NCBI GenBank assembly: GCA_039815185.1
Contig: JBCBZT010000020.1
Span: 32,001-96,000, forward strand
DNA: 64,000 nucleotides
Origin: Cyanobacteria bacterium P01_A01_bin.123
Lineage (GTDB): Bacteria; Cyanobacteriota; Cyanobacteriia; Phormidesmidales; Phormidesmidaceae
Reading direction: 5' to 3'
Part shown: positions 5,043 to 29,508 of the stretch, in pieces
Numbering within the stretch: position 1 is the first letter of the stretch
Layout of the letters: the number at the start of each line of letters is the position of its first letter
The notes under the pieces: model-generated
Seen by the model: the letters and a program-made list of their open reading frames with translations, nothing else
What the model was told of the DNA's origin: nothing
Database searches by the model: none
Made by a program: the position numbers and the translations under genes

Positions 5043-5045
5043 CCG

Positions 5046-9662: not shown

Positions 9663-9746
9663 AGCTGCTTTACCTGACCCATCCCCCATACAGATGCGAT
9701 GAATCGCGTTTCTGCACATCCACACCACTACTCCCCAAGTACCACC

Positions 9747-9968
9747 ATGGATAATGAAATCCCTCCCGAAATTCAACGAGATCTCGAAGCCATTGGCATT
9801 AACCAATTGACGAATTTGGGCAACCGGGCAATTGAGTTGGGCTTAATCGCGGGCCATGGTTATCACAAAGGGCAGTACGAATTAATTCGCCAGGGCAAGA
9901 TCTTACTGATGACACCAGACGAAGCCGTTACCTATTTAGTCGATTTGATTCAGGCCGCAGAAGGTTAG
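9747..9968 (+). CDS. Small hypothetical protein
   Basis: ORF directly after upp (MDNEIPPEIQRDL...GLIAGHGYHKGQYEL); start could also be 9699. Confidence 0.6.
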   Translation: MDNEIPPEIQRDLEAIGINQLTNLGNRAIELGLIAGHGYHKGQYELIRQGKILLMTPDEAVTYLVDLIQAAEG

Positions 9969-10079
9969 GATAATGGCCTGACGTGAATGCTTGAAGGCTC
10001 AAAGATGAGTCACCTATTCTGAAATCAAGGCTCGGCTGTCGTAGTTATTAGAGAAATAAAATGCGGCCAAGGGAGGGCT

Positions 10080-11314: not shown

Positions 11315-11510
11315 TTTTGGTCACCACATTTGTCAGCCAAGAAACCGTTATATAGCGCTGGCCAGATTGCCTAATGCACCGAGTATCGCTGGGATGTCCA
11401 ACACACAAGCAATCTGGCTCGCCGTAGCGCACAAACTTTTGTGGCTACGGCTATAAACCCTGACCACATCCAGATTAATAGCTTTTCAACCTTTCCTAAG
11501 CTAAAAATTT

Positions 11511-11534
11511 CTCCTTTGGAGACGCTGCGCGAAC
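11511..11534 (-). repeat. Very small dispersed repeat (SDR-like), GTTCGCGCAGCGTCTCCAAAGGAG
   Basis: Same TTCGCGnAGCGT + AAA-loop hairpin layout as the insert at 42167-42191; flanked on both sides by AAATTT. Confidence 0.55.
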
Positions 11535-11606
11535 AAATTTTCAAATGGGATGTGATTTAGCTTTCTATTTTACGTCGGCAACCCAACCCGCAGAATAACC
11601 CATCGG

Positions 11607-12050
11607 TTACCCCTGCGATCGCAGATGATGTACCAATGCTTGCAAACCCAAACGGTAACTTTCGACCCCAAATCCAGTAATTTGACCCACTGCTACCGGG
11701 GCAATGTAAGAGTGATGACGAAAGGCTTCTCGACGATGAATATTGCTGAGATGAACTTCTACCGTAGGTAAAGCCACCGCCGCGATCGCATCTCGAATCG
11801 CTACGCTGGTATGGGTGTAAGCCCCAGGGTTAATCAGCAAACCCTGATAAACGCCCATTCCTCGCTGAATGGTATCTACCAGGGTACCTTCGGAATTCGA
11901 TTGAAAGGCCTCGCATTGAACGCTCAGCCGCCTTGACTCGTCGGCTAACATATCATCAACATCTTTCAATGTTTGCCGACCATAAATTTCCGGCTCACGC
12001 TTCCCTAACATGTTGAGGTTAGGGCCGTGAACCACTAGAATTCTAAGCAA
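11607..12050 (-). CDS. aroQ: Type II 3-dehydroquinate dehydratase
   Basis: '[17 protein letters not shown]', '[17 protein letters not shown]', '[17 protein letters not shown]'. Confidence 0.97.
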
Positions 12051-12089
12051 AGCTTTCGTTTGTCTAAAAAAACAAGCTCGGCTTCAGCA

Positions 12090-12215
12090 CTAGTAATCGT
12101 CAACGGGTACCGGAATTGGCTCCTGCTCTTGCTGAGGCTGTGGGCCAAACAGCGCATCCATTAAGCGCTCTACCCACTCATTCAGCTTATCAAGGGCCTT
12201 TTCAATGTAGTCCAT
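12090..12215 (-). CDS. 41-aa small protein upstream of aroQ (below the ORF-track cutoff)
   Basis: MDYIEKALDKLNEWVERLMDALFGPQPQQEQEPIPVPVDDY*, preceded by an AAGGAG RBS; amphipathic helix plus PIPVPV tail of a type I recall in cyanobacterial small proteins. Confidence 0.75.
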   Translation of the reverse strand: MDYIEKALDKLNEWVERLMDALFGPQPQQEQEPIPVPVDDY

Positions 12216-12635
12216 CAGACGCAAAACTCCTTAGTTGACGCCGAAAACCCCTCATTCAGACCCAATAGTGATATTGGCGCTGAACAAAGAAAAGATTACA
12301 CCTCAAGCCTTTGAGGCATCTTTAAGATTGTATCCATCATAACGAATCTAGCGAAATGGTCAAGGGGGGGGCGGCAACCCGGAATCTACTAATCATTGAG
12401 ATTTTACCGCTCAACCCCTTGACATGGAGTGCTTAAAGAATTTGCCCTCCTCCCAAGTCTCAAACAGGGTAGAGCCTCACTTTGCCAGAATCATAATACG
12501 CCTTTAGGCGCCAAGCAGTTGATCTAGAGGCATTCCATACCCCTGCCAAGCCGTTCTCTTGCAAATGATGAGATGAAGGGTCTCGCGAACGAATACTCAA
12601 ACAAACAGCTGTTACTCAAATTTTGACTCGTTGAG

Positions 12636-12790
12636 AACCTCAGAAACCCATCTCAAATCTCGGTTAAGTGGCTTGATTTAAAGGCAAACAATACGGCCTA
12701 TAACAGAGTCTAACCTCAGAAACTCATCTCAAATCTTGGTTGAGTAGTTTGCTTTAAAGGTAAACGATACGGCCTATAACAGAGTCCAAC
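12636..12790. repeat. Imperfect 76-bp tandem duplication in the long leader of the DUF11 operon
   Basis: AACCTCAGAAAC(C/T)CATCTCAAATCT...ATACGGCCTATAACAGAGTC starts at 12636 and again at 12712. Confidence 0.9.
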
Positions 12791-13357
12791 GCAGGCTTTG
12801 TTACCCGTATTCTTAATGACTCGATGGTAGACCAAACTGATAAAAACTCGGAGATTTAAGTGTATTTACCCAGTCATGTTCGCTTAGACGGCGTCACTAT
12901 TTGTGTTCTTTAAAATACGCATAATGACCGAGCTATTTTACCTTTGTAATTGTCAATACTAACTATTGAAGGCAGGTCAGACTGTTACAAAATGAGGAAT
13001 AGGTCATTAACCATTCAATTAGCTAGTGCTCGATTCCTAGTTTAGGCTTCATCATCTTGAGCCAATAACCGGAAGTTTTTTCAAATTAATGACTAGTGAA
13101 ATGAGAAAACTTGAGACCTGTATCCAAAAGCTTGCAAGACGTTTAATGAATGTCCTGCTTTACCCCTACAGCCGCTTTCCAACGGATGTTCCCCATACAT
13201 CCCATTGAGTCCTCAACCGTCTAGCCCTTGACGATTGACATCAGGACAAGCTGGCTACGGAAGCTGTAACCCTAAACGCTGCAACGATGGCAAGTGCTGT
13301 TTTTCAGTACATGTTTATGCTGCCTCGAATTGTATCTATTTCTTCTTTTACAAGACA

Positions 13358-15940
13358 ATGAAAAGAGCTAATCAACCCAAAAAAATTCAGGGGAAAGTCT
13401 ACCGTACAATTATTGCGGCAGCACTTGCCCTGGGCGGAACACTCCACATGGTCACCGCCGTCCTTGCCGATGGCACGGCAGCAGGCACCCAAATTACCAA
13501 CGAAGCAACCGCGACTTACGAAGACCCCAACGACCCTAACAACACACCCATCACGACCACATCAAACGAAGTGGTGGTTCAGGTCGCTGAAGTAGCCGGT
13601 ATTACCGTCCAACCTGCCGGAATTGAGTTTAATCCAACTGGCGGTGACGCAGACAACGACGGCTTGGTTGAACCCGATGATCAGCTTTACTACATCTATG
13701 AAGTCACCAACGTGGGTAACGACCCCACTGAGTTCTTCATCCCAGATACCGCTGTGGTGACAACCAATAATGGTAGCCAGGACGGCCAGATTGAAATCAG
13801 CTACGATGGCACAACCTGGGGCGATCCTCGCGATACAGGTTTTAACCCAGACGGTGATGGCATTACGGATGCTATTCCTCCAAACGGTAAGGTGCTCGTA
13901 CGGGTACCGATTCAGGTGGCTAGCAATGCTAATCCTGGCGATCCCGTTGAAGTCCGCTTGGGTAACACGCCTGGTGATGGCCAAAACCAAGATTATGTGC
14001 CCAATGGTGTACTCGATGTCTACACCTCAGACGCACCTTTCCCCACCACTGTGGGTGGTGTGGATGAAGTGGATGGTGATCCGGCTAATGGCACCCGCGA
14101 AGCCAGTGCTCGTCAGTCTATCCCGGTTGATTCGACCCTCGATACCCAACCCCTAGTCACCATCGAAAAGATTCTCAGCAACTATGAGGCAAATAACGCA
14201 GCTAGCCTGACTGACGATGAATTGACTTACGAATTGCGGTTCGAGGTTGAGGGGACAGACACTACAGGCAACACCCCTGCCTTTACCCCTGGGCCTTTGT
14301 ATCCCGTCGATGGTATCTCAGTTGATGGCGGCACTGGGTCCCATATTTTGGTATCCGACGCTCTACCCGATCACACCGTGTTGAGTGGGACACCTACTGC
14401 CCCGGCAGGTTGGACCGTAGTTTACAGTGGCACCGCCACTACCACCAATGCCCATGATGCAGATTGGTTTACCAGTTCCACTGCTCCTGGGCTGGGGGGA
14501 ACCATTACCCGGGTTGGTTTCATCAGCGATTCCTCAATTATCTCCCTAGCGCCCACCAGCGTGGTTGAAACCTTCCGGTTTACAGTAGAAACGACTAATG
14601 TACCGACTGGTTTGACCGAAGCAACCTTTGCTAATATCGCGCAAGTCTTTGGTTCTGCGGATCCCGGTGGCGACCCCAACGAACTGGTCAATGATGAATC
14701 GGGTGACAGCACCCCCAGCAACTACAATCCCACTGGCGGTACTGGCGGTACTGGCGGCTTTGACCCACCGAGCGATGGCTACATCCCTGATGACGACGAT
14801 GACGGGGTACCTGACGACATCGATCTGAACGACCCGACCGCAGGTGACGGCACTGACCCCAGCAACACCAACAGCGGTACTGGGACTGGCGGTGAAGCCA
14901 ACATCAAGACCATTGGCTTGCCTTCTAGCTTGGATCTAATCAATGGCCCTGAGAATGAGCCCGAGGCAATTGGCCCCACAGGGACGAATGATGACTTCAC
15001 CAACAAATCTGTCCCGGTTGATCCTGCCGATATCACCTTCGATGCCACCGATAGCCGCGATGAACTCGATCCTGATCCGGTCGATTTTGCCAACACGGTG
15101 CTCAACAACGGCCAAACCACGGGTGACATTACCTTGGTACCCACCCCTCCTGCGGATACCAATGATTTACCCGATGGCACTATCGTCACCATTACCGATC
15201 CCGATGGTGAGACGGCGATTTACGAGTACAACGGCACGACCTTTACCCGCACGGGCGGTACGGCTGGTGGAGATATTGTCATCCCAGATGTGGATCCCAA
15301 TGATGAAGTCACCTACGGTGTCCGGGTAGACTTGCCAGATGGCACCCCCCTCTCCACGGATACCGATGGCACCGGTAATCCAATTGGCGGCTTCCCCGTT
15401 CCGATTACAGCTACGTTGGAAGATGCCGGGGGTAATACAGCCAGCAACATCACGATTGACCAAGTTTACACGGGTTATCTGCAGCTCGCTAAAGAGTCTC
15501 GCATCCTGCAAGGCAGTGGCCCAGCGGTGCAGTCTGGTCAAGGTGACTTCAGCGCCGATCCTAAGAATCCAGCACCGGGCAACATCATTGAATATCGGGT
15601 GACCTACACCAACATCAGTGAAACAGCTTCCGGTAGCAACAACGTGGTGCTCAATGCTGAAAATGTGGTCATCAACGAGGACGGCACCGATGGCGGCAAT
15701 AATTGGGCGCTGGATAACGACAACAACAGTGTGATTGACACCAGCAATGTTCCAGGGTCTGCAACTGACTCTAACGGCGGTACCATCACCTACTACAGCG
15801 GTGCCCCGGCCAATACCCCAACTGGCGATACCTCCGGTTCAGATGCAAATACCGATGTCACTCGCTATGTCGATCAGGTTCCTGGCTTAGTCGGCCCTGG
15901 TGAATCAGGCTCCCTGATTTTCCGCCGCGTGCTGAACTAA
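13358..15940 (+). CDS. Secreted acidic DUF11/isopeptide-type Ig-repeat protein, candidate major fibre subunit (860 aa)
   Basis: Signal peptide ending AVLA; mature N-terminus DGTAAGTQITNEATATY; complete internal DUF11 domain (TIEK...VSDALP...FANIAQV); C-terminal DUF11 domain (LQLAKES...PGNIIEYRVTYTN...LIFRRVLN*); DxDxDG motifs. Confidence 0.85.
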   Translation: MKRANQPKKIQGKVYRTIIAAALALGGTLHMVTAVLADGTAAGTQITNEATATYEDPNDPNNTPITTTSNEVVVQVAEVAGITVQPAGIEFNPTGGDADNDGLVEPDDQLYYIYEVTNVGNDPTEFFIPDTAVVTTNNGSQDGQIEISYDGTTWGDPRDTGFNPDGDGITDAIPPNGKVLVRVPIQVASNANPGDPVEVRLGNTPGDGQNQDYVPNGVLDVYTSDAPFPTTVGGVDEVDGDPANGTREASARQSIPVDSTLDTQPLVTIEKILSNYEANNAASLTDDELTYELRFEVEGTDTTGNTPAFTPGPLYPVDGISVDGGTGSHILVSDALPDHTVLSGTPTAPAGWTVVYSGTATTTNAHDADWFTSSTAPGLGGTITRVGFISDSSIISLAPTSVVETFRFTVETTNVPTGLTEATFANIAQVFGSADPGGDPNELVNDESGDSTPSNYNPTGGTGGTGGFDPPSDGYIPDDDDDGVPDDIDLNDPTAGDGTDPSNTNSGTGTGGEANIKTIGLPSSLDLINGPENEPEAIGPTGTNDDFTNKSVPVDPADITFDATDSRDELDPDPVDFANTVLNNGQTTGDITLVPTPPADTNDLPDGTIVTITDPDGETAIYEYNGTTFTRTGGTAGGDIVIPDVDPNDEVTYGVRVDLPDGTPLSTDTDGTGNPIGGFPVPITATLEDAGGNTASNITIDQVYTGYLQLAKESRILQGSGPAVQSGQGDFSADPKNPAPGNIIEYRVTYTNISETASGSNNVVLNAENVVINEDGTDGGNNWALDNDNNSVIDTSNVPGSATDSNGGTITYYSGAPANTPTGDTSGSDANTDVTRYVDQVPGLVGPGESGSLIFRRVLN

Positions 15941-16035: not shown

Positions 16036-16593
16036 ATGAAACGTTGGTTTATCGGTCTGGGTGCCCTGGTTCTAGTCGGCTCTGCCCCCTTTATTGGCAC
16101 TCCTGTCTTTGCCCAAATTCAAAAAATCACTGAGTCGATTGTCGAAACGATCCGTCGGCCCGAGGTCAAACTCACCCTAACTGCAGAAAAGCAGATTGTT
16201 GAAGTCAACACTGCTGGAGAACAAGCCACCACTTGGGAAGCGTTGGCAGGTCAAGCCCAGGTATTTCCCGGTGATGTCTTACGTTACACCATTGATGGTG
16301 CCAACTCTGGCGATGTTGAAGCTGAGAACTTGGTTATCAGCCAGGCAATTCCGGCTGAAATGACCTATGTTTTGGCTTCTGCAACCCCTGTAGAAGGGGC
16401 AGAACTGGTCTACAGCATCGATGGCGGCGAAACCTTTGTGGCTGAGCCCATGGTTGAAGTCACCCTGCCCGATGGCACGGTTGAACTCCAACCTGCACCT
16501 GCTGAAGCTTATACCCATGTTCGTTGGAGCTTTGGCGAGTCTTTGGCCTCTGCTAGCTCACTCAAAGTAGCCTACGACGTGCAGGTGAAATAA
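16036..16593 (+). CDS. Small secreted single-DUF11-domain protein (185 aa)
   Basis: GGAGA RBS, signal peptide MKRWFIG...PVFA, 'PGDVLRYTIDGANSG...NLVISQAIPAEMTYV', ends 'VAYDVQVK*'. Confidence 0.88.
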   Translation: MKRWFIGLGALVLVGSAPFIGTPVFAQIQKITESIVETIRRPEVKLTLTAEKQIVEVNTAGEQATTWEALAGQAQVFPGDVLRYTIDGANSGDVEAENLVISQAIPAEMTYVLASATPVEGAELVYSIDGGETFVAEPMVEVTLPDGTVELQPAPAEAYTHVRWSFGESLASASSLKVAYDVQVK

Positions 16594-16664: not shown

Positions 16665-16860
16665 TCCTAACGCTTGCAACCTGCTTAATCAGACTTTTTA
16701 CACAACCTATCGCTATTGACATGGGGTCTCGCTACGAGCTGCTGAAAAAGCTCAAGCCGAAACCTTAGGGGGACTTTGCACGAATTTTTCGCGTTGCCAA
16801 CCAGTGGAACTGGTTTACCCCCATCAGGATTGCCTCGCTCGCGGATCTCAGGGAAACATC

Positions 16861-18375
16861 ATGACCAACCGCTCTCAACATAAACCAAACTGGCTCAAAC
16901 ACCGATGGGTTAAGTACCTGGCGACTGCGCTGCTGGCCTTTGCAATCGTTCAAAATCCGATCGCAACCCTGGCTCAGGTGCAGATACCACTGGTGAACCA
17001 GGCCACTTATGAATATTCTGACCCTGCTAGTGGCAATAACTTTCAAGGCACGTCTCGTGCGATTACCACTCAAACGTCACCGCTGGTTGATCCGCTGGGA
17101 CAAATTCTGGCGTGTAACGGCACTCAGCTTGCTAACTATGCAGGGTTTTCAGTCGCAATTTACGAAGCAGATGCCAGTGGTTTAGAACCTGCCGGTTTGC
17201 TTCCCTTAACCCGTACGGAATTTCCTGATAATCCAGGCAACAACATTCCTGGTGGTAAAGCACCCAATATTGAAAATAGTAATCCCTTCTTCTTAACCAA
17301 TGCGGATCAGGGACGCTACAACTTCTTGTTTGACCCCAATCAAGGTCAGACGGATCCGGGTCAAGTTTACATCTTGGCTGTTGACCCACCCTCAGGTTCA
17401 GAGTTCATCGAGCGCCGCATTCGCATTGAGATTCTGCAGAGTACGGGCGGTTCTAACGGCAGTATTGTGCGCTATCGGGCGACAGCCCTAGATGGTCAGC
17501 CGATCAGTGTGGCTGGGGGCAACCAAATCAGTGACAACGTGGTTGAGGTTCTGGACGCAGAAACTGGGCTGCTGAATCTCTTCTCCCTAGCACTCGGGAC
17601 GGTCATTTGCGAAAACCGACAGATTCAAATCACAAAGTCTGGCGATCGCGCTGCGGCTCAACCGGGTGACACCGCCGTGTATCGACTCGCTATTCGCAAC
17701 CTGGTGGATGTCGATCTCAACACCATCGTTGCGACCGATATACTGCCCTTTGGTTTCCGCTTCTTAGCAGATTCGGTACGGGCTCACATTAACGGCAGCC
17801 CCGTTGCCATTACCCCAGAGGTAAGTCCAGACGGCTTAACGGTGACCTTCAACGCCGAAGCCAGTATTCCCTCAGGTCAAACCCTAAACATTATTTATGC
17901 CGCCAATATTACCCCGGATGCAGTCCGCGGGTCAGCGCGTAACTCGGCAGTGGTGAATGGGATACGGGCAGACAATGGTTTATCGGTCAAAGACGGCCCG
18001 GTAAGTCATCTGATGCGTCTTGACCCCGGTATTCTCAGCGACTGCGGCACATTGATTGGCCGAGTCTTTGTTGACAAAAACTTTGATGGCGAACAGCAGC
18101 CCGGTGAACCCGGTGTGCCCAATGCCGTTGTGTTTTTGGATGACGGCAACCGCATCGTCACCGATGCAGAAGGCCTCTATTCTGTCTCCAACATGCTGCC
18201 GGGATACCGCACCGGTGCCCTCGATTTAAGCAGCCTACCGGGTTATACCCTCGCCCCCAACCTCTATTTCAGAGAACGCAATAGTCAGTCACGGCTTGTG
18301 CATCTAGCACCGGGTGGCATGGTCCGCATGAACTTTGCGGTCACCCCCACCTTCCAGGAGGAAAATCAGTCATGA
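16861..18375 (+). CDS. Secreted DUF11 + SdrD-B-like protein (504 aa), translationally coupled to the barrel gene
   Basis: Signal peptide; mature N-terminus QVQIPLVNQATYEY; complete DUF11 (IQITKSGD...ATDILP...RNSAVV); C-terminal 'IGRVFVDKNFDGEQQPGEPGVP'; ATGA overlap with the next gene. Confidence 0.87.
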   Translation: MTNRSQHKPNWLKHRWVKYLATALLAFAIVQNPIATLAQVQIPLVNQATYEYSDPASGNNFQGTSRAITTQTSPLVDPLGQILACNGTQLANYAGFSVAIYEADASGLEPAGLLPLTRTEFPDNPGNNIPGGKAPNIENSNPFFLTNADQGRYNFLFDPNQGQTDPGQVYILAVDPPSGSEFIERRIRIEILQSTGGSNGSIVRYRATALDGQPISVAGGNQISDNVVEVLDAETGLLNLFSLALGTVICENRQIQITKSGDRAAAQPGDTAVYRLAIRNLVDVDLNTIVATDILPFGFRFLADSVRAHINGSPVAITPEVSPDGLTVTFNAEASIPSGQTLNIIYAANITPDAVRGSARNSAVVNGIRADNGLSVKDGPVSHLMRLDPGILSDCGTLIGRVFVDKNFDGEQQPGEPGVPNAVVFLDDGNRIVTDAEGLYSVSNMLPGYRTGALDLSSLPGYTLAPNLYFRERNSQSRLVHLAPGGMVRMNFAVTPTFQEENQS

Positions 18376-21300
18376 AATCGTCACAGAGAAACACTATCAT
18401 CAGGGCCAGCCTATTGGGGGCGATCGCAGGCACCGTTGGCATCACAGCAAATCCTGCAACTGCATTAGCAGCAACCCAATCTATCAGCCCTAAAGCCCAA
18501 GCAGCCAACATTGCAGAATTGTCGCAAGCCGAGGCAACCTCATCTGAACTTTCCTCACGCGATCGCGAGATTGAAGTTGCTCAAATAGAGACCACAGCCG
18601 CTAGTGCACCTTCCTCAGACTCAACCAGTAGTCTTGAGGTTATTCCAGAGACATTTGCTACACAAGCAGCAGATACGCCAATCGCAGCAGACTTATTACC
18701 GTCTCCAGGAGCAGAACTCACCACTGAGATCGGGACTGAGGTTGCTGATATTGCAGACAATGAGCCGACCGCGATCGCCGATGGTGCCAGCCAGCTAGAC
18801 GGTCTTCAAGAGGCTGAAATGGAGGCGGTAGAAGCACTCACCTCGGAAGAATCAGCAGAGGACACTACCACCGTATCTGATGCAGAAGAATTAGCGGAGA
18901 CTGAGATTCAACCCCTAGATCATCAGGCATTAGCCAATCAGGTTCGGATTCTAAATCCTGTCGGCAACGCCGTTCTAGATGTGCCAGCCACCACTGTGAT
19001 TCTGGAATATCCGACTGGCGCTGATGTTGAATTGCAGGTCAATGGCACACGGGTTGACGCATCTTTGCTCGGTCGGACAGAGGTTGACGAAACCCGTAGC
19101 GTCACCGTCGAAACTTGGTATGGGGTACCGCTACAGGCAGGCACGAACAACATTGATGCGGCCATTCGAGGGACTAACACTCCCCTAACGACGATAGAGA
19201 TTCAGGTGCGTGGGGTACCGACTCAGCTTACGGTTGAAACTCGGGAAGCCCAAGTCGCTGCCGATGGTCGCTCAACAGCCACCATTCAAGGTCAACTGCT
19301 AGATGAGAACGGTAACCTTTCCAACTGGAATACAACCGTTACGTTGACGGCCACCGACGGAGAATTTGTGGGGGCAGACCTGTACCCTGATCAAGCTGGG
19401 TTTCAAGTTGAAGCTCGTAATGGTCGCTATACCACCGAACTGCGATCGCCGTTGGAAGCCCAACGGGTGCAGCTTAGGGCAACCGCAAATGGGCTAGAAG
19501 CATTTAATCAAATTCAGTTTGAAACCCAACAGCGTCCTAGCTTGGTGACTGGCGTCATCGACCTCCACTTTGGGACACGGGGCACTGACTATTACAGCAG
19601 CTTCCGAGACTTCTTACCCCCCGATGGCAACAACGGCTACGAGTTCGATGTAGACGCCGCTGTTTTTGCCATCGGGAACTTAGGAGACTGGCTGTTCACG
19701 GGGGCTTACAACAGCGATCGCTCACTGAATGAAGACTGTACCGGCAGTATTGAACTGTTTCGTGACACGCAGCGATGCGAACACAACTATCCGGTCTACG
19801 GCGATGATTCTAGCCGTGACGTTTTAGCACCTTCCATTGACAGCCTTTACCTGAGATTTGAGCGCACTTCGCCAGTGGCAGGGGCTGGAATTGACTACTT
19901 TTCGTGGGGGGATTTCAACACCGAAGAGTTTGCCACCTCATCCCAACTATTTAGCGCCACAACCCGTCAACTCCATGGCTTTAAATTTAACTACAACATT
20001 GGTGATTTAGCCGTAACCGGCTTCTATGGCGACAACGTAGACGGGTTTCAACGAGACACGATTGCGCCGGATGGCACTAGCGGCTTCTATTTCCTCTCTC
20101 GCCGTTTGCTCGTGCCCGGGAGTGAAAATATCTTCCTAGAACTAGAAGAATTGGATCGCCCTGGTACGGTCGTCGAACGTCAGGCGCTCTATCGCGGCAC
20201 CGACTACGAAATTGACTATGACCGGGGTACAATTCTGTTCCGCGATGCGGTTTTACGCACGGCTGTAGACGAGACCGGGACTGTCCTAGTGCGCCGGATT
20301 GTGGCGACCTACCAGTTTGAAGGAGACGGCACTAACACCAATATTTATGCAGGCCGCCTGCAGTACAACCTAGATCGCACTTTGAACCACGAGAGCTGGC
20401 TGGGCGCGACCTATCTCAGAGAGAACCAAGGCAACCGGAGCTTTGAACTGTATGGCGCAGACGCTCAAATTTCCTTGGGTGAAGATGCTCAGCTGATTGC
20501 AGAATTTGCCCATTCAGATAGTGATTTTGATTTGTCTGGCCCAATCAGCGGTTCAGCCTATCGGCTTGAACTTGAGGGCACGGTAACCAACTGGTTGGCT
20601 GGGCGAGCTTATTTTCGCCATACTGACGCAGGCTTTACCAACACTGCCACAACTAGCTTTGTACCGGGGCAAACCCGCTATGGCATTGAGGCAGTTGCTG
20701 CTGTCTCTGAGACAACCAACATCCGCGCCCGGTATGACCACGAAGAGAATGTCGGTACCGCACCGCGCCCGCTCTTGACCCTAAGTGAGCTGCTTGAGAC
20801 TGGCGTTTCTGCCACCCCTGGTAGCCGAGTTGATAACTCGCTAGACACCTTTTCACTGGGTATTGTTCAGCAACTTGGTGATACCAATCTAGAGTTCGAC
20901 TGGATTCACCGAGAACGCACCGATCGGATTTCTCCCAATGCTTTATCGTCGAGTTCTGATCAGCTGCGATCGCGCTTAACCACTAACTTGAGCGAAGACA
21001 TTACCCTCTTTGCCCAAAATGAGCTGAATCTGTCTTCTAATGGAGACTCAATCTATCCCAACCGCACCATCTTTGGCCTAGATTGGCAACTGATGCCCGG
21101 TATTACGCTCGGGGTCAATCAGATTTTCCTCGAAAACAACGGCATCAATGATCGCGGCGCAGTTACCACCATCGATTTGGATGCTGCCTATGCCCTAGGT
21201 GAAGACACCACCATTCGGGGTCGCTTCTCAGTTATCGATGGCACTCAAGTGGGGGGAACGGTTGGGCTAGAACAGGGCTTTACGTTGGCCCCCGGCCTGC

Positions 21301-22247
21301 GGCTTGATTTGGCTTACGAGCATGTATTTAACAACATCTCCAGTATCACTGCTGCCGGAACGCAATTTGTGCAGCCCTTTGCGGTGGGATCGGGGGCATC
21401 TTCGCTGCTGCTCACCGATGGTGACAGTTTCAGCGTCGGACTTTCTTACACTGATAATCCTGATTTGCAAGCGAGTGCCCGCCTAGAGCACCGTTCTTCC
21501 TCCCAAGGGTCTAACACAGTTTTCACAGCATCTGCCCTGGGTCGATTGTCGCCAGCAGTCAGCGTCTTATTCAACTATGAACTGGCCAGTGCTGCCAATC
21601 AATCCCTAGATGGACTGGGAACCTCTAGCACGCTGAAGCTGGGCCTTGCCTACCGAGATCCCCATAGCGATCAGTTCAATGCCCTGCTGCGTTATGAATA
21701 CCGGGGTAATCCTTCTGCTACGCCCGAGACCTTACTCTTTGGGTCTGACATCGGCTCGGAAGAACACCTCTTTACTGCTGAGGCAATTTATGCACCGAAT
21801 TGGCGCTGGGAGTTTTATGGCAAGTATGCCTTCCGCACCAGCACAACCCGCATTGGTGGCATTGGCAGCAGTGAAACGGGTGGGTTTGATGACTTTGTAT
21901 CTAACAGTGCGGTTCATCTAGCCCAGTTTAGAACCACTTATCGATTGGGATACGACTGGGATGTCGTTGGTGAAGCCCGCTGGATTGGCAGCTCTGCCGG
22001 ATATACCGAAATGGGTGCGGCCCTCGAGTTGGGCTACTATCCGACACCTGACCTGCGGTTGTCGGCGGGTTACAGCTTTGGTAGCGCCTATGACCGGGAT
22101 TTCACTGGGAGCAATCGCTCCGCTGGGGGATTTTATTTCGGCATTACTGCCAAGCTCAACAGTTTATTTGGTGGCTTTGGTCTGCAAGAGGTGGCCCCCC
22201 CTCAGCAGCAAGAGTCTGTGCTAGAAACCACTGCGACAAACAATTAA
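18372..22247 (+). CDS. Large outer-membrane beta-barrel protein with N-terminal Ig-like domains (candidate export/assembly pore)
   Basis: Signal peptide, acidic low-complexity linker, invasin-like 'ADGRSTATIQGQLLDENG', then about 800 aa of alternating amphipathic, aromatic-rich beta-strands (e.g. 'WRWEFYGKYAFR', 'LRLSAGYSFG', 'GFYFGITAKL'). Confidence 0.8.
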   Translation: MKSSQRNTIIRASLLGAIAGTVGITANPATALAATQSISPKAQAANIAELSQAEATSSELSSRDREIEVAQIETTAASAPSSDSTSSLEVIPETFATQAADTPIAADLLPSPGAELTTEIGTEVADIADNEPTAIADGASQLDGLQEAEMEAVEALTSEESAEDTTTVSDAEELAETEIQPLDHQALANQVRILNPVGNAVLDVPATTVILEYPTGADVELQVNGTRVDASLLGRTEVDETRSVTVETWYGVPLQAGTNNIDAAIRGTNTPLTTIEIQVRGVPTQLTVETREAQVAADGRSTATIQGQLLDENGNLSNWNTTVTLTATDGEFVGADLYPDQAGFQVEARNGRYTTELRSPLEAQRVQLRATANGLEAFNQIQFETQQRPSLVTGVIDLHFGTRGTDYYSSFRDFLPPDGNNGYEFDVDAAVFAIGNLGDWLFTGAYNSDRSLNEDCTGSIELFRDTQRCEHNYPVYGDDSSRDVLAPSIDSLYLRFERTSPVAGAGIDYFSWGDFNTEEFATSSQLFSATTRQLHGFKFNYNIGDLAVTGFYGDNVDGFQRDTIAPDGTSGFYFLSRRLLVPGSENIFLELEELDRPGTVVERQALYRGTDYEIDYDRGTILFRDAVLRTAVDETGTVLVRRIVATYQFEGDGTNTNIYAGRLQYNLDRTLNHESWLGATYLRENQGNRSFELYGADAQISLGEDAQLIAEFAHSDSDFDLSGPISGSAYRLELEGTVTNWLAGRAYFRHTDAGFTNTATTSFVPGQTRYGIEAVAAVSETTNIRARYDHEENVGTAPRPLLTLSELLETGVSATPGSRVDNSLDTFSLGIVQQLGDTNLEFDWIHRERTDRISPNALSSSSDQLRSRLTTNLSEDITLFAQNELNLSSNGDSIYPNRTIFGLDWQLMPGITLGVNQIFLENNGINDRGAVTTIDLDAAYALGEDTTIRGRFSVIDGTQVGGTVGLEQGFTLAPGLRLDLAYEHVFNNISSITAAGTQFVQPFAVGSGASSLLLTDGDSFSVGLSYTDNPDLQASARLEHRSSSQGSNTVFTASALGRLSPAVSVLFNYELASAANQSLDGLGTSSTLKLGLAYRDPHSDQFNALLRYEYRGNPSATPETLLFGSDIGSEEHLFTAEAIYAPNWRWEFYGKYAFRTSTTRIGGIGSSETGGFDDFVSNSAVHLAQFRTTYRLGYDWDVVGEARWIGSSAGYTEMGAALELGYYPTPDLRLSAGYSFGSAYDRDFTGSNRSAGGFYFGITAKLNSLFGGFGLQEVAPPQQQESVLETTATNN

Positions 22248-22278: not shown

Positions 22279-24426
22279 ATGATGCATCCCCTAAGCACTC
22301 GACGCTATCAGCTATTGATGGCTTGCGGTCTAGCCGCAACAACACTCGTCTCTCAAGTCGCAGTCTGGGCGCAGGCCACCCCGGCTCACGTGACTACACC
22401 ACCACCTGATCTCCACATCGTCGTCAATAGTAGTCAAGACGGCCCGATCCAGGCTGACGAGATGTTGACCTTGCGAGAAGCCATTGAACTGACTAATGGC
22501 ACCTTGCCATTGGCTTCTCTAAGTGATGTTGAACACGCTCAAGTCACTGTAGTTGAACCTGCTGAATCAGCATCGCGCATTGAGTTTAATCTCCCGGCGA
22601 ATCAAACAAAGATTCAATTGGTAACGCCGCTACCCGCAATCGCAAGCCCTGATCTAACCCTAGATGGCACTACCCAACCCGGTTATGACCCAGCCCTATC
22701 GGCAACGGCTGAAATCGAAGTGCCAATCCCAGTTGTCGAAATTACGCCAGCTCCAGAGGCTGAAGTGTTTCGGGGGTTGAGTATTGTTGCCAGTGGCGTA
22801 ACAGTACGAGGCTTGAGCCTTTATGGTTTTACCGCAGAACACCGAGCTACGGCGATTACACCACCCGCAGATATCTTTATTGCCCATCGTTTGCCACCCC
22901 CAGATACCAGCCAACAATATCCACCCGCCCAAGGGTTTTCCTATTACGACGAAAACATTCCGCCTGAGGATGTACTGATTGAACACAATTGGTTGGGGAT
23001 GCCACCGACAGAAGCCATGCCTGAGACACCTTCAGCGTTTGGGGTTTCTGTATTCAACAGCCAAGGCACAACGGTTCGTCGGAATCGCATTGCTCACCAT
23101 GACGGCAGTGCGATCATTACCGGGGCTCGGGCTGAAAATCTGAAGGTTGAAGAAAACATCTTAGTCGCCAATGGCCTAGCGGGCATGCCCGATGGCATCC
23201 GCATTGAGGGCAGCGTTGATAACAGCGTCATCAGTGGCAATCTGGTCTGCGGTAACGACGGTGCAGGGATCTTTCTGTTTAAGCCCGAAGGGGCGATTGA
23301 AATTCGCGACAACACCATCAAGTTTAATGGTCAGCGCCTGCGTCGCGCTGCGATTTACCTAATGGGCAATGGCCATCGAGTTGTCGACAACGAAATTAAT
23401 AATCAAAAAGGGCCGGGGGTGGTTGTCACCGCGTTTGGCATTGGCAGCCGCAACCCCAGCCATCGCAACTTGATTCAAAACAATGTGTTTGCCAGCCTGG
23501 AAGGCTTGAGTATTGACCTCAATACCCGCCGTCACAATGGGGTGCAAGATTTCCAGCGGGGCGATGGCCCGAATCCAGTGCGCAATTCTGACAATCGGCG
23601 GTTGGATACTGGCAATTTAGCGATTAATGCACCTCAGTTCCTGAGTCCTGAGTTCTTTGTCATGAATGGCAAAGTGATGATCGAAGGCATGGCTGATCCA
23701 GGGTCTGAGGTTGAGCTTTACCTCAGCCATGCGGCTGATTCAGCCCATGGGCCTTTGAGTCAGCCTTTGGCGACTGTTGCGGTGGATCAAGCGGGGCACT
23801 TCACATACGAATCCGCTGAACTGCCATCAGGAACCATAGTCAGCGCGATCGCATCTGATCCTCGCTATGGCACTTCAGAGCCAGCGTTAAATACCGTGGT
23901 GCGATCGCTGTCTGCTACAGATGACAACTCAGCTGCATCTAGCAATCTGGATTTTGAAGTCCCCCAGTGTACAACCCGGCCTGAGCCCCCCGAACCTGTC
24001 GTCGTGGCCCCACCCCCGCCAGAACCAATTCAACTGCAAGTGCCTCGAAACGTTCACTTTGGCCTGGATCGCGACAACATCAGTGCTGAAAGCGCGGCTG
24101 TTTTAGATCAAATTGCAGCAGCAATGCAAATCCATCCCACCTTGGTGGTGGATCTGCACGGCCACACCGACTCTCGGGCCAGTGATGCCTACAACCAAGA
24201 ATTAGCCTTGCGTCGGGCGCGCAATGCTAGAGCGTATCTGATTCAGCAAGGCATTGATCCGGCCCGGACGACAATTCGCTCGTTGGGTGAAACTCAGCTT
24301 TTAACTTCAGAGCGCGATCGCGTCGAGTATGCCCGCAACCGCCGAGTCGAATTTGTGTTTCGCGATGTCCGAGGGCTTAACATCACCTTCGTTGATCAAG
24401 ACACCGACTTACAGATCGAACCTTGA
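22279..24426 (+). CDS. Secreted right-handed beta-helix protein with C-terminal OmpA-like peptidoglycan-binding domain
   Basis: CSLREA-like 'IVVNSSQD...LTLREAI', parallel beta-helix repeats, Pro-rich linker, OmpA motifs 'VHFGLDR', 'GHTDSRASDAYNQELALRRA', 'NRRVEF'. Confidence 0.9.
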   Translation: MMHPLSTRRYQLLMACGLAATTLVSQVAVWAQATPAHVTTPPPDLHIVVNSSQDGPIQADEMLTLREAIELTNGTLPLASLSDVEHAQVTVVEPAESASRIEFNLPANQTKIQLVTPLPAIASPDLTLDGTTQPGYDPALSATAEIEVPIPVVEITPAPEAEVFRGLSIVASGVTVRGLSLYGFTAEHRATAITPPADIFIAHRLPPPDTSQQYPPAQGFSYYDENIPPEDVLIEHNWLGMPPTEAMPETPSAFGVSVFNSQGTTVRRNRIAHHDGSAIITGARAENLKVEENILVANGLAGMPDGIRIEGSVDNSVISGNLVCGNDGAGIFLFKPEGAIEIRDNTIKFNGQRLRRAAIYLMGNGHRVVDNEINNQKGPGVVVTAFGIGSRNPSHRNLIQNNVFASLEGLSIDLNTRRHNGVQDFQRGDGPNPVRNSDNRRLDTGNLAINAPQFLSPEFFVMNGKVMIEGMADPGSEVELYLSHAADSAHGPLSQPLATVAVDQAGHFTYESAELPSGTIVSAIASDPRYGTSEPALNTVVRSLSATDDNSAASSNLDFEVPQCTTRPEPPEPVVVAPPPPEPIQLQVPRNVHFGLDRDNISAESAAVLDQIAAAMQIHPTLVVDLHGHTDSRASDAYNQELALRRARNARAYLIQQGIDPARTTIRSLGETQLLTSERDRVEYARNRRVEFVFRDVRGLNITFVDQDTDLQIEP

Positions 24427-24621
24427 TCATGCCTACGAAAAATTACTGACGTATTACCAGTGTTGCAATTAACCCAGCTTGAAGCTCCCAGAATTTACTG
24501 AGTCTTTGATCCCAACATAACGGGATTGCTAAAGAGGGAGCTTCCCGGTGCTGAGCCTTTATGCCTTACCTGCTCTGCTAATCCATTCTCCAAATCATTG
24601 CCTGCCAATAAGGGTCTTACT

Positions 24622-27600
24622 ATGAGTCTTCTACCCAGATATCTGTCACTGTTTGCGCGCGCTGCTAAAAATCGCCCCAGTGCGTTACTAGCCGCTGCAA
24701 CGATATTAACCACGACGCTGGGCTTTGTGACTCCCGCCAGGGCTGACTCCACGCTTAACGTCATCAAAACAGCGCTGGATCTGAATGGGGCAGATATTAC
24801 CGATGTTGAGTCAGGTCAGGATTTTCTGTTTGAAATTAAGTGGTCTTGTAGTTTAGACGATATCAACGTTGATATATGTGAAGACGTCCAAATCTCAGAC
24901 GTGATTCCCACCGAGCTGGAATATGTCGGTTTAGAAGAGGGAGAAGGGGCCAGAGCCAACTACAACAGCGGCACAAGAACATTCACCTACGATCTCGGCA
25001 CGATTCAGGGAGACTCGGCAGCGGGTTCAATTGCTATTAGAGTTCGCTTCCCAGAAGGAGTTACTGCCGACAACGTAACCGCCAACAACACGGCTGTTAT
25101 TGAATCCGCCACTGCAAATCCGCCAGGACAAAAGTCCAGCAGTGACGATATCACCAGTGATGTCAGCAACCCAGCAGGTAAGTGGAATGTCACTAAAAAC
25201 AAGTTGTTACCTTCCGGTGATCCCATCTTGGATGGAGATGTTACCTATGAAGTCAGCCTTGCGCCAACCCAACGTACGGGTAACCTGAATCTAGAAAACG
25301 TCGTCATGACGGACACCCCAGAGGTTGGGGCAGAAGTTGTCTCTGTGAGCAATGGCGGCGTCTTTAATGATGGCGACGGCGATGGCATCGTGGATCCGGG
25401 AGACACCATTACCTGGAACGTCGGCGATCGCACTGTAGGGCAAGAAACCTACCGAGCTCAGGTCGTATTAAGTTATCCAGCGGCCACCTTCAACTCGAGT
25501 GGTGCAGCCCCCGATACACTACCAGATGTGACAAACTCGGTCACCGGAGCCGGTACCTTTGAAGTGACTAGCGATGCCTTTAGCGACGATGGGGAAGTTA
25601 GCCACGGGTTCGTCGATCCAGATCCTGGCTTAGCCAACTTTCAAAAACGCAACCAAGGCTTTGTCTACGGCAGCCGTCCTGATATTGGCACCGAATTCTA
25701 CTACGACTATAGAATTCAAAACACGGGTAACGTTGCCTTCGATACCCTCACCGTCTTTGATGACAATTTGCCGCCAGAGGTAGATGCTCTACGCTTCCGC
25801 ACGGGTAGATACAGTAACGACGCCGGAGCGACGTTTACACTGCAATACAGTACCGACAACGTCAACTTCCAAAATGTGCCTGGGGTGGTTGATTTGGTTG
25901 TTGCCGACACTGAGCAGCAAAACTTTACCTTGCCAACAGGGACACGTGGCATTCGCATTATTTACGAAAATGCGCCTGTGGGCTTTAACGCCAATACTCG
26001 CCCCAGACTCTATGTCGAAGTGCGCACAACCATGGAAGATACAGGGGCGACGATTCAAGACGGAGAAGACATTGATAACACCGCCACCTTAACAGGTGTC
26101 TTTAATGGTAATGACTACACCGATGACGATGATGTGGAAACCTTTGTCGATCGCCCCCGTGCCGTAGGCATCATTAGCAAAGAGGATTTAACCAATAGCG
26201 GCCCTTACGCGCCGTCTGAGCTAGTTGAGTTTCGGTTGACTGCGGGCAACCGTCGCAATGCCCGCAGAACTCTGGAAAATCCGGTCGTGGTCGATATTCT
26301 GCCCGATGGCCTAGCCTATGTGGCAAATTCCTATGTGTTTGATGCTGGCGATAGTGGCCTGTCAGCACCGTCTAATTTCGAAGTCATTGAAAACTACAAC
26401 GGTAGTGGCCAAACCCTCTTACGCTGGACTTGGGAAGGTCAAGCTGCGGATTATGACGATGGGTCCGACGGTAACGCTTTTAATGACGACAAGACCTGGA
26501 CGATTACCTATAAAGCCGGGATTGAAGAAGGTGATATCCAGGGCAGCATCACCAATACGGTTTACCTCAGTACCTACGACACAAGTACCGACCCGGCAGA
26601 TTTTGTTTGCCATAGCAGGGGTGACAACGATATTGGTGATAGCGACGACATTGATGGCGACGGCAAGACCGGGGACGACAATGTTTACAACAGCAACTCA
26701 TCCACAACTAACGATAATCCCCTCTGCCGTGCCACCGCAGATGTAACCGTTACCACGCTGCCCTTCCTCGAAGCACGTAAACGGGTACAGGGTGGATTAA
26801 ACAACAGCTACGAGATCAGTGGTCAGAGCTATCCCGGTGGTGCAGTCGATTATCAAATCACCGTTACCAACACCGGTACTACGCCCATTGAAGACTTGGT
26901 CGTCGTCGATATCTTCCCCAATATTGACGACACCAGTGTGCTCAATACCAACGTGCCGAGGAATTCTGAGTGGCGACCTTATTTGGTTGGCCCCATCGAA
27001 GTCCAAGTCCCCACGGCTCAGGTTTACTATAGTGTGTCGTCAAATCCATGCCGTCTGAATCCATTAGACGGTACTGATCAGCTTTGGCCACCCGGTTGCG
27101 TTGATGACTGGACAACCACCTTCCCCAATGACCCTACTACGGTCACAGCGGTCAAGATTGACTACGGCAGCTTCAGGCTCAATCCATTGACCTCGCTGAC
27201 AAACGATTGGCCCATGCGGGTGCCGGTCGTTGCCCCTACCAATGAATCAGCCTTTAATTCCTTTGCCCTCACCGGACGACGCATCGATCGCACCTCTCCC
27301 CTACTACCCCAAGAACCGCCTCGGGTAGAGGTCGACTTACAAACCGACGATCCACCGGTTTTGGGTGATTTTGTCTGGAACGATGCTAATAACAACGGCG
27401 TTCAAGACGATGGTGAGAATGGTATCAATGGGGTAGTAGTCGAGCTTTACCGCCCCGGTGCTGATGGCATTCCGGGGACGCCAGACGACGAGTTCGTCGA
27501 CTTCACCATGACCGGGCCAAACCACTTTGGTTTCCCTGGCTTTTATGAGTTTGCCTATCTCGATCCAGGTGACTACTTTCTGAAATTCATTCCGCCCACG

Positions 27601-29508
27601 GGCTCAGGCTATTTCTTTACCAGTAGCAGTGGTACCGATCGCGACGATGGGACAGGTTCTGATGCTAATCAGACAACCGGCTTAACCGATGTGATTACTA
27701 TCGCCAGCGGCGACGACGAACGCGACATTGATGCGGGTCTTACCACCACCCCACCAACAGGCCAAGCCACCCTGGGTGACTATGTCTGGTTAGATGCCAA
27801 TGGTGATGGCATTCAAGATGCCAATGAAACGGGTGTTAACGGGGTCAGCGTCATGCTCTATCAGAGTGACGGCACCTTTGTGGGCACCACCCAAACCAGT
27901 AATGACACCAATGGTAATCCGGGGTATTACATCTTCCAAAACCTGCCACCCGGTGATTACTACGTCGAGTTCAATCCACCCGCAGGGTACAATGCTTCTC
28001 CGCAAAGTCAGGGGAGCGACACAGCTCAAGACTCCGATGCTGATCCCACCGATGTCGATGGGACAACGCCAGGAACCCAAGCCCGAACAAATCCATTTAC
28101 CCTCAGCGCAGGTCAAAACGAAACTGATATCGATTTCGGGATCGTGCCCCAACCGCGTATCGGTGACTATGTCTGGATTGACCTCAACCGTGACGGCATC
28201 CAGGATGGAACAGAGGTTGGGCTCAATGGCGTCACAGTCAATCTCTATGAAGACGGTAATCTCACCCCCGTAGACACGATCGTGACTGCCGACGATATTC
28301 AAGGCAATCCTGGTTATTATGCCTTTGCCACTGGAGGACTTAGCGGTGACTATTCGATTGAGTTTGTGCTGCCTAGCGGATATGAATTTTCGCCACAAAA
28401 CTCTGGCAGCGATGACACCCTCGACTCAGATGTCAATACCGCAACGGGGCGCATTGAGATTACTGGCGTCACCAACACAACCACTGATTTGAGTCTAGAT
28501 GCTGGGGTCAACCAACCGGCACCAGGGCCTGGCTTCGTAGGCGACTTTGTCTGGTTAGATCTCGATGAAGATGGCATTCAAGATCCAACCGAAACTGGCT
28601 TTAACGATGTCACGGTCAGACTGCGTAGGGCTAGCGATGACAGCCTTTATGCTGAGACAGTCACAGCAGATTCTCTGGGGCGACCTGGCTACTATCTGTT
28701 TAGCAACGTACCGGATGATGACTACTATGTTGAATTCGTACTGCCAGAAGACTACTTAGCCTCACCTGCAAATGCTGGCAGTGATGACTCGGAAGATTCC
28801 GATGTGGATAGTGCGGATGCAGATCCGAATGTGTCAGGGGTAGAGACTGATGCGGATCTGAGTACGAGTGCGATTGAGCTAAGAACGCCATCATTCAACG
28901 TGACTAGCACCTCCGACAATCGCACTATTGACATGGGGATTTACCGTGACCCTAATGCCCCTGAACCTCCAAGCGTGGTGCTACTCAAGCGAATCACAGC
29001 TATTAATAACGTTCCTATTGCCTTCGACGGGCCTCAAACCCCAGAAGAAGATGAGGTTGATGATCTATTTCCATCTAACTTTTTAGAAGGGACAGTGGAT
29101 GGCGGTGAAACGAGACCGGGCGATGAAATTGAGTACACGATCTACTTTATTTCTAACGGCGATCGCGCAGCTGAAAATGTGGCTTTCTGCGACCTAGTGC
29201 CAGAATACACAACGATCAGTTCAACTGCTTTCAATGCCAACCCAGCCACCCAAGATACGGGGGGAATCCCAGGGGCCGATCGCGGCATTGTGCTCGGTCT
29301 TGGTAGTGATGAACTCTCAATGACCAATGTGGCCGATGGCGATCGCGGGGTTTATGTACAACCGGGTGATCCGACTGGACTCGACTGTGGCGGCCCGAAT
29401 AGCAATGGTGCCGTAGTTGTGTTCATTGGCGATATTCCCAACGCTAACGGCAACCCAAACCCCAACACCTCCTACGGATTCGTCAGATTCCGAGCGCGGG
29501 TGCAGTAG
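24622..29508 (+). CDS. Large secreted adhesin-like protein: five DUF11 domains, four SdrD B-like repeats, C-terminal truncated DUF11 (1628 aa)
   Basis: Signal peptide ending PARA; repeated K...(T/V)D.(L)P...N(T/S) domains; four (L/I/V)GD(F/Y)VWxDxNx(D/N)G(I/V)QD repeats from 27361; ends 'YGFVRFRARVQ*'. Confidence 0.88.
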   Translation: MSLLPRYLSLFARAAKNRPSALLAAATILTTTLGFVTPARADSTLNVIKTALDLNGADITDVESGQDFLFEIKWSCSLDDINVDICEDVQISDVIPTELEYVGLEEGEGARANYNSGTRTFTYDLGTIQGDSAAGSIAIRVRFPEGVTADNVTANNTAVIESATANPPGQKSSSDDITSDVSNPAGKWNVTKNKLLPSGDPILDGDVTYEVSLAPTQRTGNLNLENVVMTDTPEVGAEVVSVSNGGVFNDGDGDGIVDPGDTITWNVGDRTVGQETYRAQVVLSYPAATFNSSGAAPDTLPDVTNSVTGAGTFEVTSDAFSDDGEVSHGFVDPDPGLANFQKRNQGFVYGSRPDIGTEFYYDYRIQNTGNVAFDTLTVFDDNLPPEVDALRFRTGRYSNDAGATFTLQYSTDNVNFQNVPGVVDLVVADTEQQNFTLPTGTRGIRIIYENAPVGFNANTRPRLYVEVRTTMEDTGATIQDGEDIDNTATLTGVFNGNDYTDDDDVETFVDRPRAVGIISKEDLTNSGPYAPSELVEFRLTAGNRRNARRTLENPVVVDILPDGLAYVANSYVFDAGDSGLSAPSNFEVIENYNGSGQTLLRWTWEGQAADYDDGSDGNAFNDDKTWTITYKAGIEEGDIQGSITNTVYLSTYDTSTDPADFVCHSRGDNDIGDSDDIDGDGKTGDDNVYNSNSSTTNDNPLCRATADVTVTTLPFLEARKRVQGGLNNSYEISGQSYPGGAVDYQITVTNTGTTPIEDLVVVDIFPNIDDTSVLNTNVPRNSEWRPYLVGPIEVQVPTAQVYYSVSSNPCRLNPLDGTDQLWPPGCVDDWTTTFPNDPTTVTAVKIDYGSFRLNPLTSLTNDWPMRVPVVAPTNESAFNSFALTGRRIDRTSPLLPQEPPRVEVDLQTDDPPVLGDFVWNDANNNGVQDDGENGINGVVVELYRPGADGIPGTPDDEFVDFTMTGPNHFGFPGFYEFAYLDPGDYFLKFIPPTGSGYFFTSSSGTDRDDGTGSDANQTTGLTDVITIASGDDERDIDAGLTTTPPTGQATLGDYVWLDANGDGIQDANETGVNGVSVMLYQSDGTFVGTTQTSNDTNGNPGYYIFQNLPPGDYYVEFNPPAGYNASPQSQGSDTAQDSDADPTDVDGTTPGTQARTNPFTLSAGQNETDIDFGIVPQPRIGDYVWIDLNRDGIQDGTEVGLNGVTVNLYEDGNLTPVDTIVTADDIQGNPGYYAFATGGLSGDYSIEFVLPSGYEFSPQNSGSDDTLDSDVNTATGRIEITGVTNTTTDLSLDAGVNQPAPGPGFVGDFVWLDLDEDGIQDPTETGFNDVTVRLRRASDDSLYAETVTADSLGRPGYYLFSNVPDDDYYVEFVLPEDYLASPANAGSDDSEDSDVDSADADPNVSGVETDADLSTSAIELRTPSFNVTSTSDNRTIDMGIYRDPNAPEPPSVVLLKRITAINNVPIAFDGPQTPEEDEVDDLFPSNFLEGTVDGGETRPGDEIEYTIYFISNGDRAAENVAFCDLVPEYTTISSTAFNANPATQDTGGIPGADRGIVLGLGSDELSMTNVADGDRGVYVQPGDPTGLDCGGPNSNGAVVVFIGDIPNANGNPNPNTSYGFVRFRARVQ

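Follow-up and report, generated by a model that had tools for sequence, protein, structure and literature searches.

A putative shaft gene with a split isopeptide-type domain in a cyanobacterial operon, and its reading as part of a covalent head-to-tail pilus

A window of 64,000 nucleotides from Cyanobacteria bacterium P01_A01_bin.123 (GenBank assembly GCA_039815185.1, contig JBCBZT010000020.1, positions 32,001 to 96,000, forward strand) was analysed; "the window" means this whole stretch, and all positions are counted from its first letter. It carries a plus-strand cluster of six genes, the first of which, gene 1 (13358..15940, +), encodes an 860-amino-acid putative shaft subunit composed of a signal peptide, a donor hairpin, three immunoglobulin (Ig)-like domains (D1, the DUF7925 domain D2, and D3) and an acceptor domain. 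The start codon is ATG at 13358 and the stop-side end lies at 15940; an upstream TTG start at 13235 (901 amino acids) was tried and rejected, the homologs supporting the ATG. Residues 1-37 (13358..13468, +) were read by eye as a Sec-type signal peptide, with Ala37 present in 116 of 120 homologs. The start at 13469 given in an original prediction, which had been made from the letters of the window, corresponds to residue 38, directly after the AVLA end of the signal peptide. That prediction, which took the protein for a self-polymerising subunit with complementary ends, also placed the codons of Asn48 (13499), Lys712 (15491) and Glu774 (15677) correctly, and was right about the LIFRRVLN terminus without an Asn strand and about the rank of gene 1 as the first plus-strand gene of the cluster, upstream of which there are just short open reading frames (ORFs). 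The mature chain holds 6 Lys in 823 residues.

The donor hairpin (residues 38-78, 13469..13591, +) corresponds to the last two strands of a CnaA/CLIPPER fold and contains Asn48 and Asn70 (13565). It is followed by D1 (13592..14131, +), an Ig-like domain that does not need the hairpin to be complete and matches TTHA1873 (7wrk) with a VIA Z score of 8.9 and a root-mean-square deviation (rmsd) of 3.0 over 122 aligned residues, by D2 (14141..14917, +), by the Ig-like D3 (14924..15469, +; assigned from the AlphaFold model and VIA) and by the C-terminal acceptor (15470..15937, +), which carries Lys712 and Glu774 and lacks the last two strands. The AlphaFold model of the mature protein (88 rows; predicted local distance difference test, pLDDT, 89; predicted template modelling score, pTM, 0.70) shows the same order of parts, with the two-strand hairpin at the N-terminus, then three Ig-like domains and finally the C-terminal domain. 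Several Ig-like domains had been predicted between the ends; three are found, and the description is to be corrected in that the middle one is an optional DUF7925 module with a complete triad of its own (K271 at 14168, D334 at 14357 and N426 at 14633). Its Pfam match (PF25546) scores 182.7 bits against a cut-off of 26.5 (E 8e-54), and the triad is kept in the close homologs (K271 118/120, D334 120/120, N426 120/120). Among 135 relatives the K-D-N triad of D2 is present in 106, and D2 is missing in 10, in which both ends are still present. D2 resembles the CLIPPER domain 9IFR (VIA Z 8.2, rmsd 2.6, 119 aligned) and also the CnaA domains of BcpA and SpaD, all with middling scores (Z 8.2-8.7).

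Papers cited by repository number are cited from the excerpts accessible to us, and statements about them apply to these excerpts. In CnaA-like domains, a Lys of the first strand is bonded to an Asn of the penultimate strand, the acid being typically Asp, not Glu (PMC12617251); an intramolecular Lys/Asp/Asn bond is predicted there for DUF7925, and Q8YS00 is listed with K264/D326/N415 (Table 1). At the C-terminus of gene 1, no complete contiguous CLIPPER/DUF11 domain was found: the chain stops before the Asn strand, and the acceptor tails are shorter than 25 residues in 128 of 133 aligned relatives, with five fusions set aside. Since the acceptor stops before its last two strands and the hairpin supplies them, the donor consists of two strands, not one; the N-terminal Asn48 strand of the original prediction was thus retained, and its single donor strand was replaced by a hairpin that includes the Asn70 strand. 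No direct Pfam match to DUF11 was found in gene 1; in hhalign comparisons, the profile of its acceptor aligned with gene 2, the gene-3 CLIPPER domain and the gene-6 acceptor at 61-75% probability. Searches of PDB sequences with gene 1 and its profile returned nothing significant, and Foldseek searches with the models of gene 1 and of a two-domain relative, P0300, brought up Ig repeats of a generic kind, with no solved fibre of such a type among them.

The closest relatives of gene 1 are cyanobacterial (1247 matches among 8000 scored candidates), and at 50% identity the relatives group into 1060 clusters. Among 120 close homologs, the 118 that cover position 48 all have the Asn, Lys712 is present in every one, and 114 carry Glu and 6 carry Asp at position 774. 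The alignment A2 (146 homolog rows) contains Asn48 in 145 rows, Lys712 in 146, and Glu (134) or Asp (12) at position 774. Both ends could be aligned in 135 of 148 distant representatives, with the combinations N-K-E in 123, N-K-D in 9, N-T-E in 2 and S-K-E in 1; Asn, Lys and Glu or Asp occur together in 132 of them. Judged at the level of sequence, the conservation of Asn, Lys and acid in the ends of gene 1 exceeds chance, and an isopeptide-type domain is split across these ends.

Five of the 148 representatives (P0126, P0131, P0136, P0171 and P0190) carry the acceptor and then the hairpin in one chain with no extra spacer. Four of these arrangements lie in large proteins, in some of which RTX, Calx-beta or cadherin domains occur; the fifth, P0131, is a clean circular permutant. 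The domain boundaries at which the five start and end differ, and P0190 has cadherin domains after its hairpin in place of D1. Asn and Glu are present in all five, and Lys in three. Because natural proteins fuse the two pieces directly, hairpin and acceptor belong to one domain. A self-pairing gene 1 and one that pairs with its neighbour would both fit these fusions. The predicted complementarity of a donor and an acceptor end is strongly supported by the conservation, by the in-chain fusions and by a predicted hairpin-acceptor complex, which was obtained with gene 2. As a separate observation, the same five proteins and further large ones (G023, G230) appear to have captured a permuted piece of a shaft gene as an internal stalk.

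The partner genes were compared across 77 shaft loci (one of them near-identical to the window), of which all gave a match to gene 2, 76 to gene 3 and 74 to gene 4, the misses for genes 3 and 4 falling at contig ends. Gene 2 (16036..16593, +) encodes a secreted, acceptor-only domain of 185 amino acids with Ala50 at the Lys position and Gln103 at the acid position. Profile alignments put E774 of gene 1 on Q103, K712 on A50, and Q103 on Asp312, the catalytic position of the gene-3 CLIPPER domain. The Lys position is Ala or Val in 78 of 78 proteins and the acid position Gln in 77 of 78, and in all 77 complete ORFs the chain ends at the same strand as the gene 1 acceptor. Lys52 of gene 2 was dropped as a reactive Lys, the alignment putting A50 at that position. 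The predicted complex of the gene 1 hairpin plus D1 with gene 2 reached a score of 0.84 over three runs, whereas the best of the three controls stayed at 0.00, with a contact agreement of at least 99%, a partner pLDDT of at least 91 and almost all contacts made by the hairpin; the mark set for this score is reached by 116 of 157 solved pairs and by 2 of 215 mismatched pairs. The model supports binding of the gene 1 hairpin by gene 2. Because gene 2 accompanies the shaft from genome to genome and binding to the hairpin is predicted, it is likely a chaperone that masks the donor.

Gene 3 (16804..18375, +; start codon uncertain), the putative base or adapter, has a donor hairpin with Asn65, a complete CLIPPER domain (K278/D312/N380), an SdrD_B-like C-terminus and no acceptor end; the hairpin Asn and the CLIPPER K/D/N triad are each conserved in 75 of 75 proteins, and the hairpins of genes 1 and 3 match at 95% probability (hhalign profiles). 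Gene 6 (24526..29508, +; start codon uncertain) encodes a putative tip adhesin of 1660 amino acids, in which DUF11 and SdrD_B repeats precede an acceptor at the C-terminus (Lys 28987, Asp 29191). It was matched in 42 of the 77 loci, nearly always by the acceptor alone, its N-terminal parts being variable; the acceptor Lys is kept in 40/40 and the Asp in 39/40, and the chain ends there in all 37 complete ORFs. Acceptors of this type (window 28960-29508) also have a conserved Cys beside the Asp at the catalytic position and usually a second Cys further on, which could form a disulfide.

A sample of 301 genomes, spread evenly over the phylum and including that of the window, was searched for genes 1 and 2 and the base. 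Gene 2 was matched in 35 genomes and the gene-1 profile in 37, all 35 lying inside the 37; the two gene-1 matches without gene 2 or gene 3 lie in frames of 2711 and 2451 amino acids, one of them visibly permuted. The base was matched in 41 genomes, including 8 of the same class without shaft or gene 2. A second operon type comprises the base, the barrel, gene 5 and acceptor-only adhesins, without a shaft. Of 80 loci fetched with a shaftless base protein, 56 had at least 6 kilobases (kb) upstream, and the shaft and gene 2 were absent in all 56; the short base proteins of these operons have the donor Asn in 79 of 79 cases. As shaftless operons hold only donor-only and acceptor-only genes, pairing there must be between chains. 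Base proteins measure about 500-550 amino acids in shaft operons (window 16804-18375) versus about 310-370 in shaftless ones (L163-L242), those of shaft operons having an extra domain between hairpin and CLIPPER. A shaftless cluster also lies on another contig of the same genome (L162, G000:C92:198000-217999, minus strand, locus 3474-15882), with a short base (donor hairpin, CLIPPER and SdrD_B-like end), a barrel, a beta-helix/OmpA gene and two paralogous beta-helix adhesins ending in acceptor domains.

The same five-gene set is found on plasmids of Thermus thermophilus HB8 (TTH_RS10905-10925) and Deinococcus sp. QL22, where the small protein lacks Lys and acid and the shafts have Lys and Asp; the terminal DUF11 match of the Thermus shaft covers only positions 2-89 of 114. 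DR_B0037 is merely listed in PMC5382914. A wider family combines hairpin, D1, zero to two variable domains and a gene-6-type acceptor, with N/K/D in 32 of 32 aligned members. A search for shorter relatives of residues 38-260 gave mostly fragments, but it yielded P0300.

Owing to the donor-only and acceptor-only genes of the operon and to the shaftless form, head-to-tail assembly is the best reading, and gene 1 is probably the shaft of an isopeptide-locked, head-to-tail donor-hairpin pilus. The original prediction of a major head-to-tail shaft is partly supported; polymerisation, the covalent bond and the stoichiometry of a major shaft are what we infer. The split domain would be of the CnaA type (CLIPPER/DUF11), its first strands with Lys712 and Glu774 being C-terminal and its last two strands with Asn48 N-terminal. 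After Sec export, gene 2, which has the groove and lacks Lys and acid, would hold the hairpin reversibly and so might prevent self-closure or early polymerisation. The hairpin would then be handed over to the acceptor of the preceding subunit and complete its fold, whereupon Glu774, by analogy with CnaA chemistry, would catalyse the Asn48-Lys712 bond between chains; DUF7925 would add an intramolecular bond inside each subunit. The fibre would run from the tip (gene 6, acceptor only) through n copies of gene 1 to the base (gene 3, donor only), and may be held by, or passed through, the gene-4 barrel.

Several observations weigh against this reading. The partner in the predicted complex is gene 2, not the gene 1 acceptor, and a split domain may pass the complex test through its likeness to solved intact domains. 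In gene 2, K52 lies two residues downstream of A50 and is kept in 77 of 78 proteins, and the register is not fully settled. Neither hairpin (gene 1, gene 3) was aligned by hhalign to the tail of the complete gene-3 CLIPPER domain. Covariation over 147 rows gave no enrichment of hairpin-acceptor pairs (4 of the top 200), and Lys is lost in two of the in-chain fusions. The hairpin of the gene 1 monomer model is confident (pLDDT 89-96), which is compatible with self-closure, and the model is bent, not straight (rmsd about 20-30 against multi-domain rods), and could be closed. The loci and genomes compared are kin and not independent, so that the counts are patterns and not statistics, and the export role given to gene 4 is one that we infer.

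Gene 1 might instead be a spacer, with a single copy or a few copies linking base and adhesin, rather than the major shaft of a long pilus. Operons without a shaft are common, which would make the shaft an optional extension, and some genomes hold several hairpin-D1 paralogs; however, nothing built into a protein that carries both ends would stop it from adding to itself, and in cyanobacteria, Thermus and Deinococcus alike the shaft gene is the first or second of its operon. We regard the spacer role as unlikely.

Intramolecular closure would let the hairpin fill the acceptor of its own chain and give a covalently closed, stable monomer, with only genes 3 and 6 pairing between chains. It is favoured by the confidence of the hairpin in both monomer models (gene 1; P0300, hairpin pLDDT 88-94), by the bend of the gene 1 model with its low-confidence D1-D2 hinge at mature residues 223-226, and by the general expectation that circular permutants arise where termini lie close together. 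Both ends are, however, retained whether one, two, three or more domains separate them, and the two-domain form models as a rod: D1 and the acceptor of P0300 superpose on tandem AgI/II domains with an rmsd of 5.1-6.4 over 223-265 residues. AgI/II domains stack end to end, and the P0300 hairpin therefore probably projects away from its own groove in the model. A non-reactive hairpin binder that tracks the shaft would be needless for a self-closing protein, and a closed ring would be unlinked to the base and the barrel, whereas the base query found a match in each of the 31 same-class genomes that have both shaft and gene 2. Self-closure is accordingly given a rather low probability. A non-covalent head-to-tail polymer, in which the triad would be structural or the Glu of the CnaA-type site not catalytic, is improbable: the Asp typical of CnaA-like domains (PMC12617251) and the Lys-to-Thr exchange in two of the five fusions speak for it, but Lys (146/146), Asn (145/146) and acid (146/146) are conserved, Glu and Asp interchange, Asp is the acid in the tip acceptors and in the shafts of Thermus and Deinococcus, and gene 2, the one acceptor expected to let go, is the one without Lys and acid.

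The acidic loops DADNDG and DDDDDG, which had been proposed to bind Ca2+, are present in gene 1 but poorly conserved in A2 (D99 27/146, D101 18/146, D478 79/146, D482 58/146). Across the family, motifs of the form Dx[DN]xDG are over-represented (59 of 123 proteins versus 15 of 123 shuffled ones), which makes Ca2+ binding plausible. A third acidic loop, WALDNDNNSVID (window 15704-15748, residues 783-797), lies inside the acceptor; its D786, D788 and D794 are invariant in the 120 close homologs, and it is a better candidate Ca2+ site than the other two.

Gene 4 (18372..22247, +; 1291 amino acids) has an Ig-like N-terminal part and a probable large outer-membrane beta-barrel, with Pfam matches to Invasin_D3 and, weakly, DUF2490; its atlas look-alikes include outer-membrane clusters, and it may serve as an anchor or export platform. 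Neither gene 4 nor the gene-2 profile gave a significant match in searches of PDB sequences. All3289 of Nostoc PCC 7120 (1289 amino acids; PMC9705863) is a candidate ortholog by length and description only, the Nostoc PCC 7120 locus being absent among the returned loci. Gene 5 (22279..24426, +), an accessory gene with a beta-helix and an OmpA-like peptidoglycan-binding domain, was matched within 10 kb in 12 of the 77 shaft loci. A plasmid of Acinetobacter haemolyticus (L080 7704-21211) carries a related DUF11/barrel/OmpA cluster, the upstream part of which is annotated as several short ORFs and is possibly a fragmented shaft gene. In several Proteobacterial plasmids (L081, L082, L083), a gene-4-like barrel is accompanied by a single giant DUF11/SdrD_B/OmpA protein of 2000-3400 amino acids, possibly a one-protein version of the system. 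A promoter and terminator scan gave chance level, and no RNA holder was listed for the operon. Upstream of aroQ, a 44-amino-acid ORF with a Pro-rich tail (window 12090-12224, minus strand) looks like a real small cyanobacterial protein.

We see an even chance that these operons represent a widespread, undescribed pilus class of two-membrane bacteria (Cyanobacteria and Deinococcota, with look-alikes in Pseudomonadota), with enzyme-free split-CnaA junctions, an "inverse" chaperone and a non-usher barrel. If so, a covalent, enzyme-free class with parts from outside the known pilus families would be added to Gram-negative-type envelopes, its junctions would resemble a natural chain of SpyTag/SpyCatcher-type links, and gene 2 would be a dead acceptor that times assembly. 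The gene-4 barrel would be a new outer-membrane export route and a candidate for that step in cyanobacteria, which is called uncharacterised in PMC13297417. Many "DUF11/hypothetical" operons would gain a testable function, and protein engineering would gain natural covalent peptide/protein pairs with a matching non-reactive binder; Thermus thermophilus HB8 offers a tractable thermophile with the full gene set.

The terminal domain would share with CLIPPER/DUF11 (PF01345) and DUF7925 the CnaA-like fold with a first-strand Lys, an acid and a penultimate-strand Asn (PDB 9IFR). The CLIPPER and DUF7925 bonds lie within one chain of monomeric fibrillar adhesins (PMC12617251), whereas the terminal domain of gene 1 is split between both ends and has Glu as the acid; split or polymerising CLIPPER forms are not mentioned in the excerpt of that paper. 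PMC13319060 describes a monomeric hook protein with 49 DUF11 domains. Chaperone-usher pili (Fim/Pap) have the same tip/shaft/base logic as that proposed for the gene 1 system, an N-terminal donor that completes an incomplete Ig fold, and a periplasmic chaperone and an outer-membrane barrel in one operon (PMC9715654). For the present system, completion of another chain's Ig fold by a donor is predicted with gene 2 and implied by the shaftless operons. Unlike the situation in chaperone-usher pili, the candidate chaperone, gene 2, would bind the donor and donate no strand, and the junction is predicted to be covalent. At the sequence level, no Pfam or NCBIfam match to the usher (PapC) or PapD family was found in genes 1-6 at E 0.1.

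The archaeal thread of Saci_0406 is a head-to-tail donor-strand filament with a proposed intersubunit isopeptide, which differs in linking the N-terminal amine to an Asn of subunit n+2 (PMC9715654). Pam pili of the candidate phyla radiation (CPR) are head-to-tail donor-strand filaments too; reports of them are confined to CPR bacteria, and the excerpt of PMC13278184 mentions no isopeptide. Among 14 proteins scanned (Pfam, NCBIfam), no match to sortase, TasA or signal peptidase was found, and gene 1 ends at its last strand without a sorting signal. In BsaA of Clostridium perfringens, the N-terminal donor segment inserts into the sheet of the adjacent subunit, where its Asn is joined to a Lys through an intermolecular isopeptide bond formed with the help of a Glu (bioRxiv 10.1101/2024.11.04.621531). 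The combination of a donor with an intermolecular Asn-Lys lock is the same as that predicted from the genes alone for gene 1. BsaA belongs to the TasA family and has one donor strand, a Gram-positive host and SipW processing, whereas the gene 1 system has a split CnaA/CLIPPER fold, a two-strand hairpin, a multi-domain subunit and two-membrane hosts, together with a barrel, base, tip and inert acceptor of its own. A literature search that left most subscription journals outside its reach returned no description of the gene 1 operon system. Judged from its genes, the system as a whole appears new, while each single principle has a precedent.

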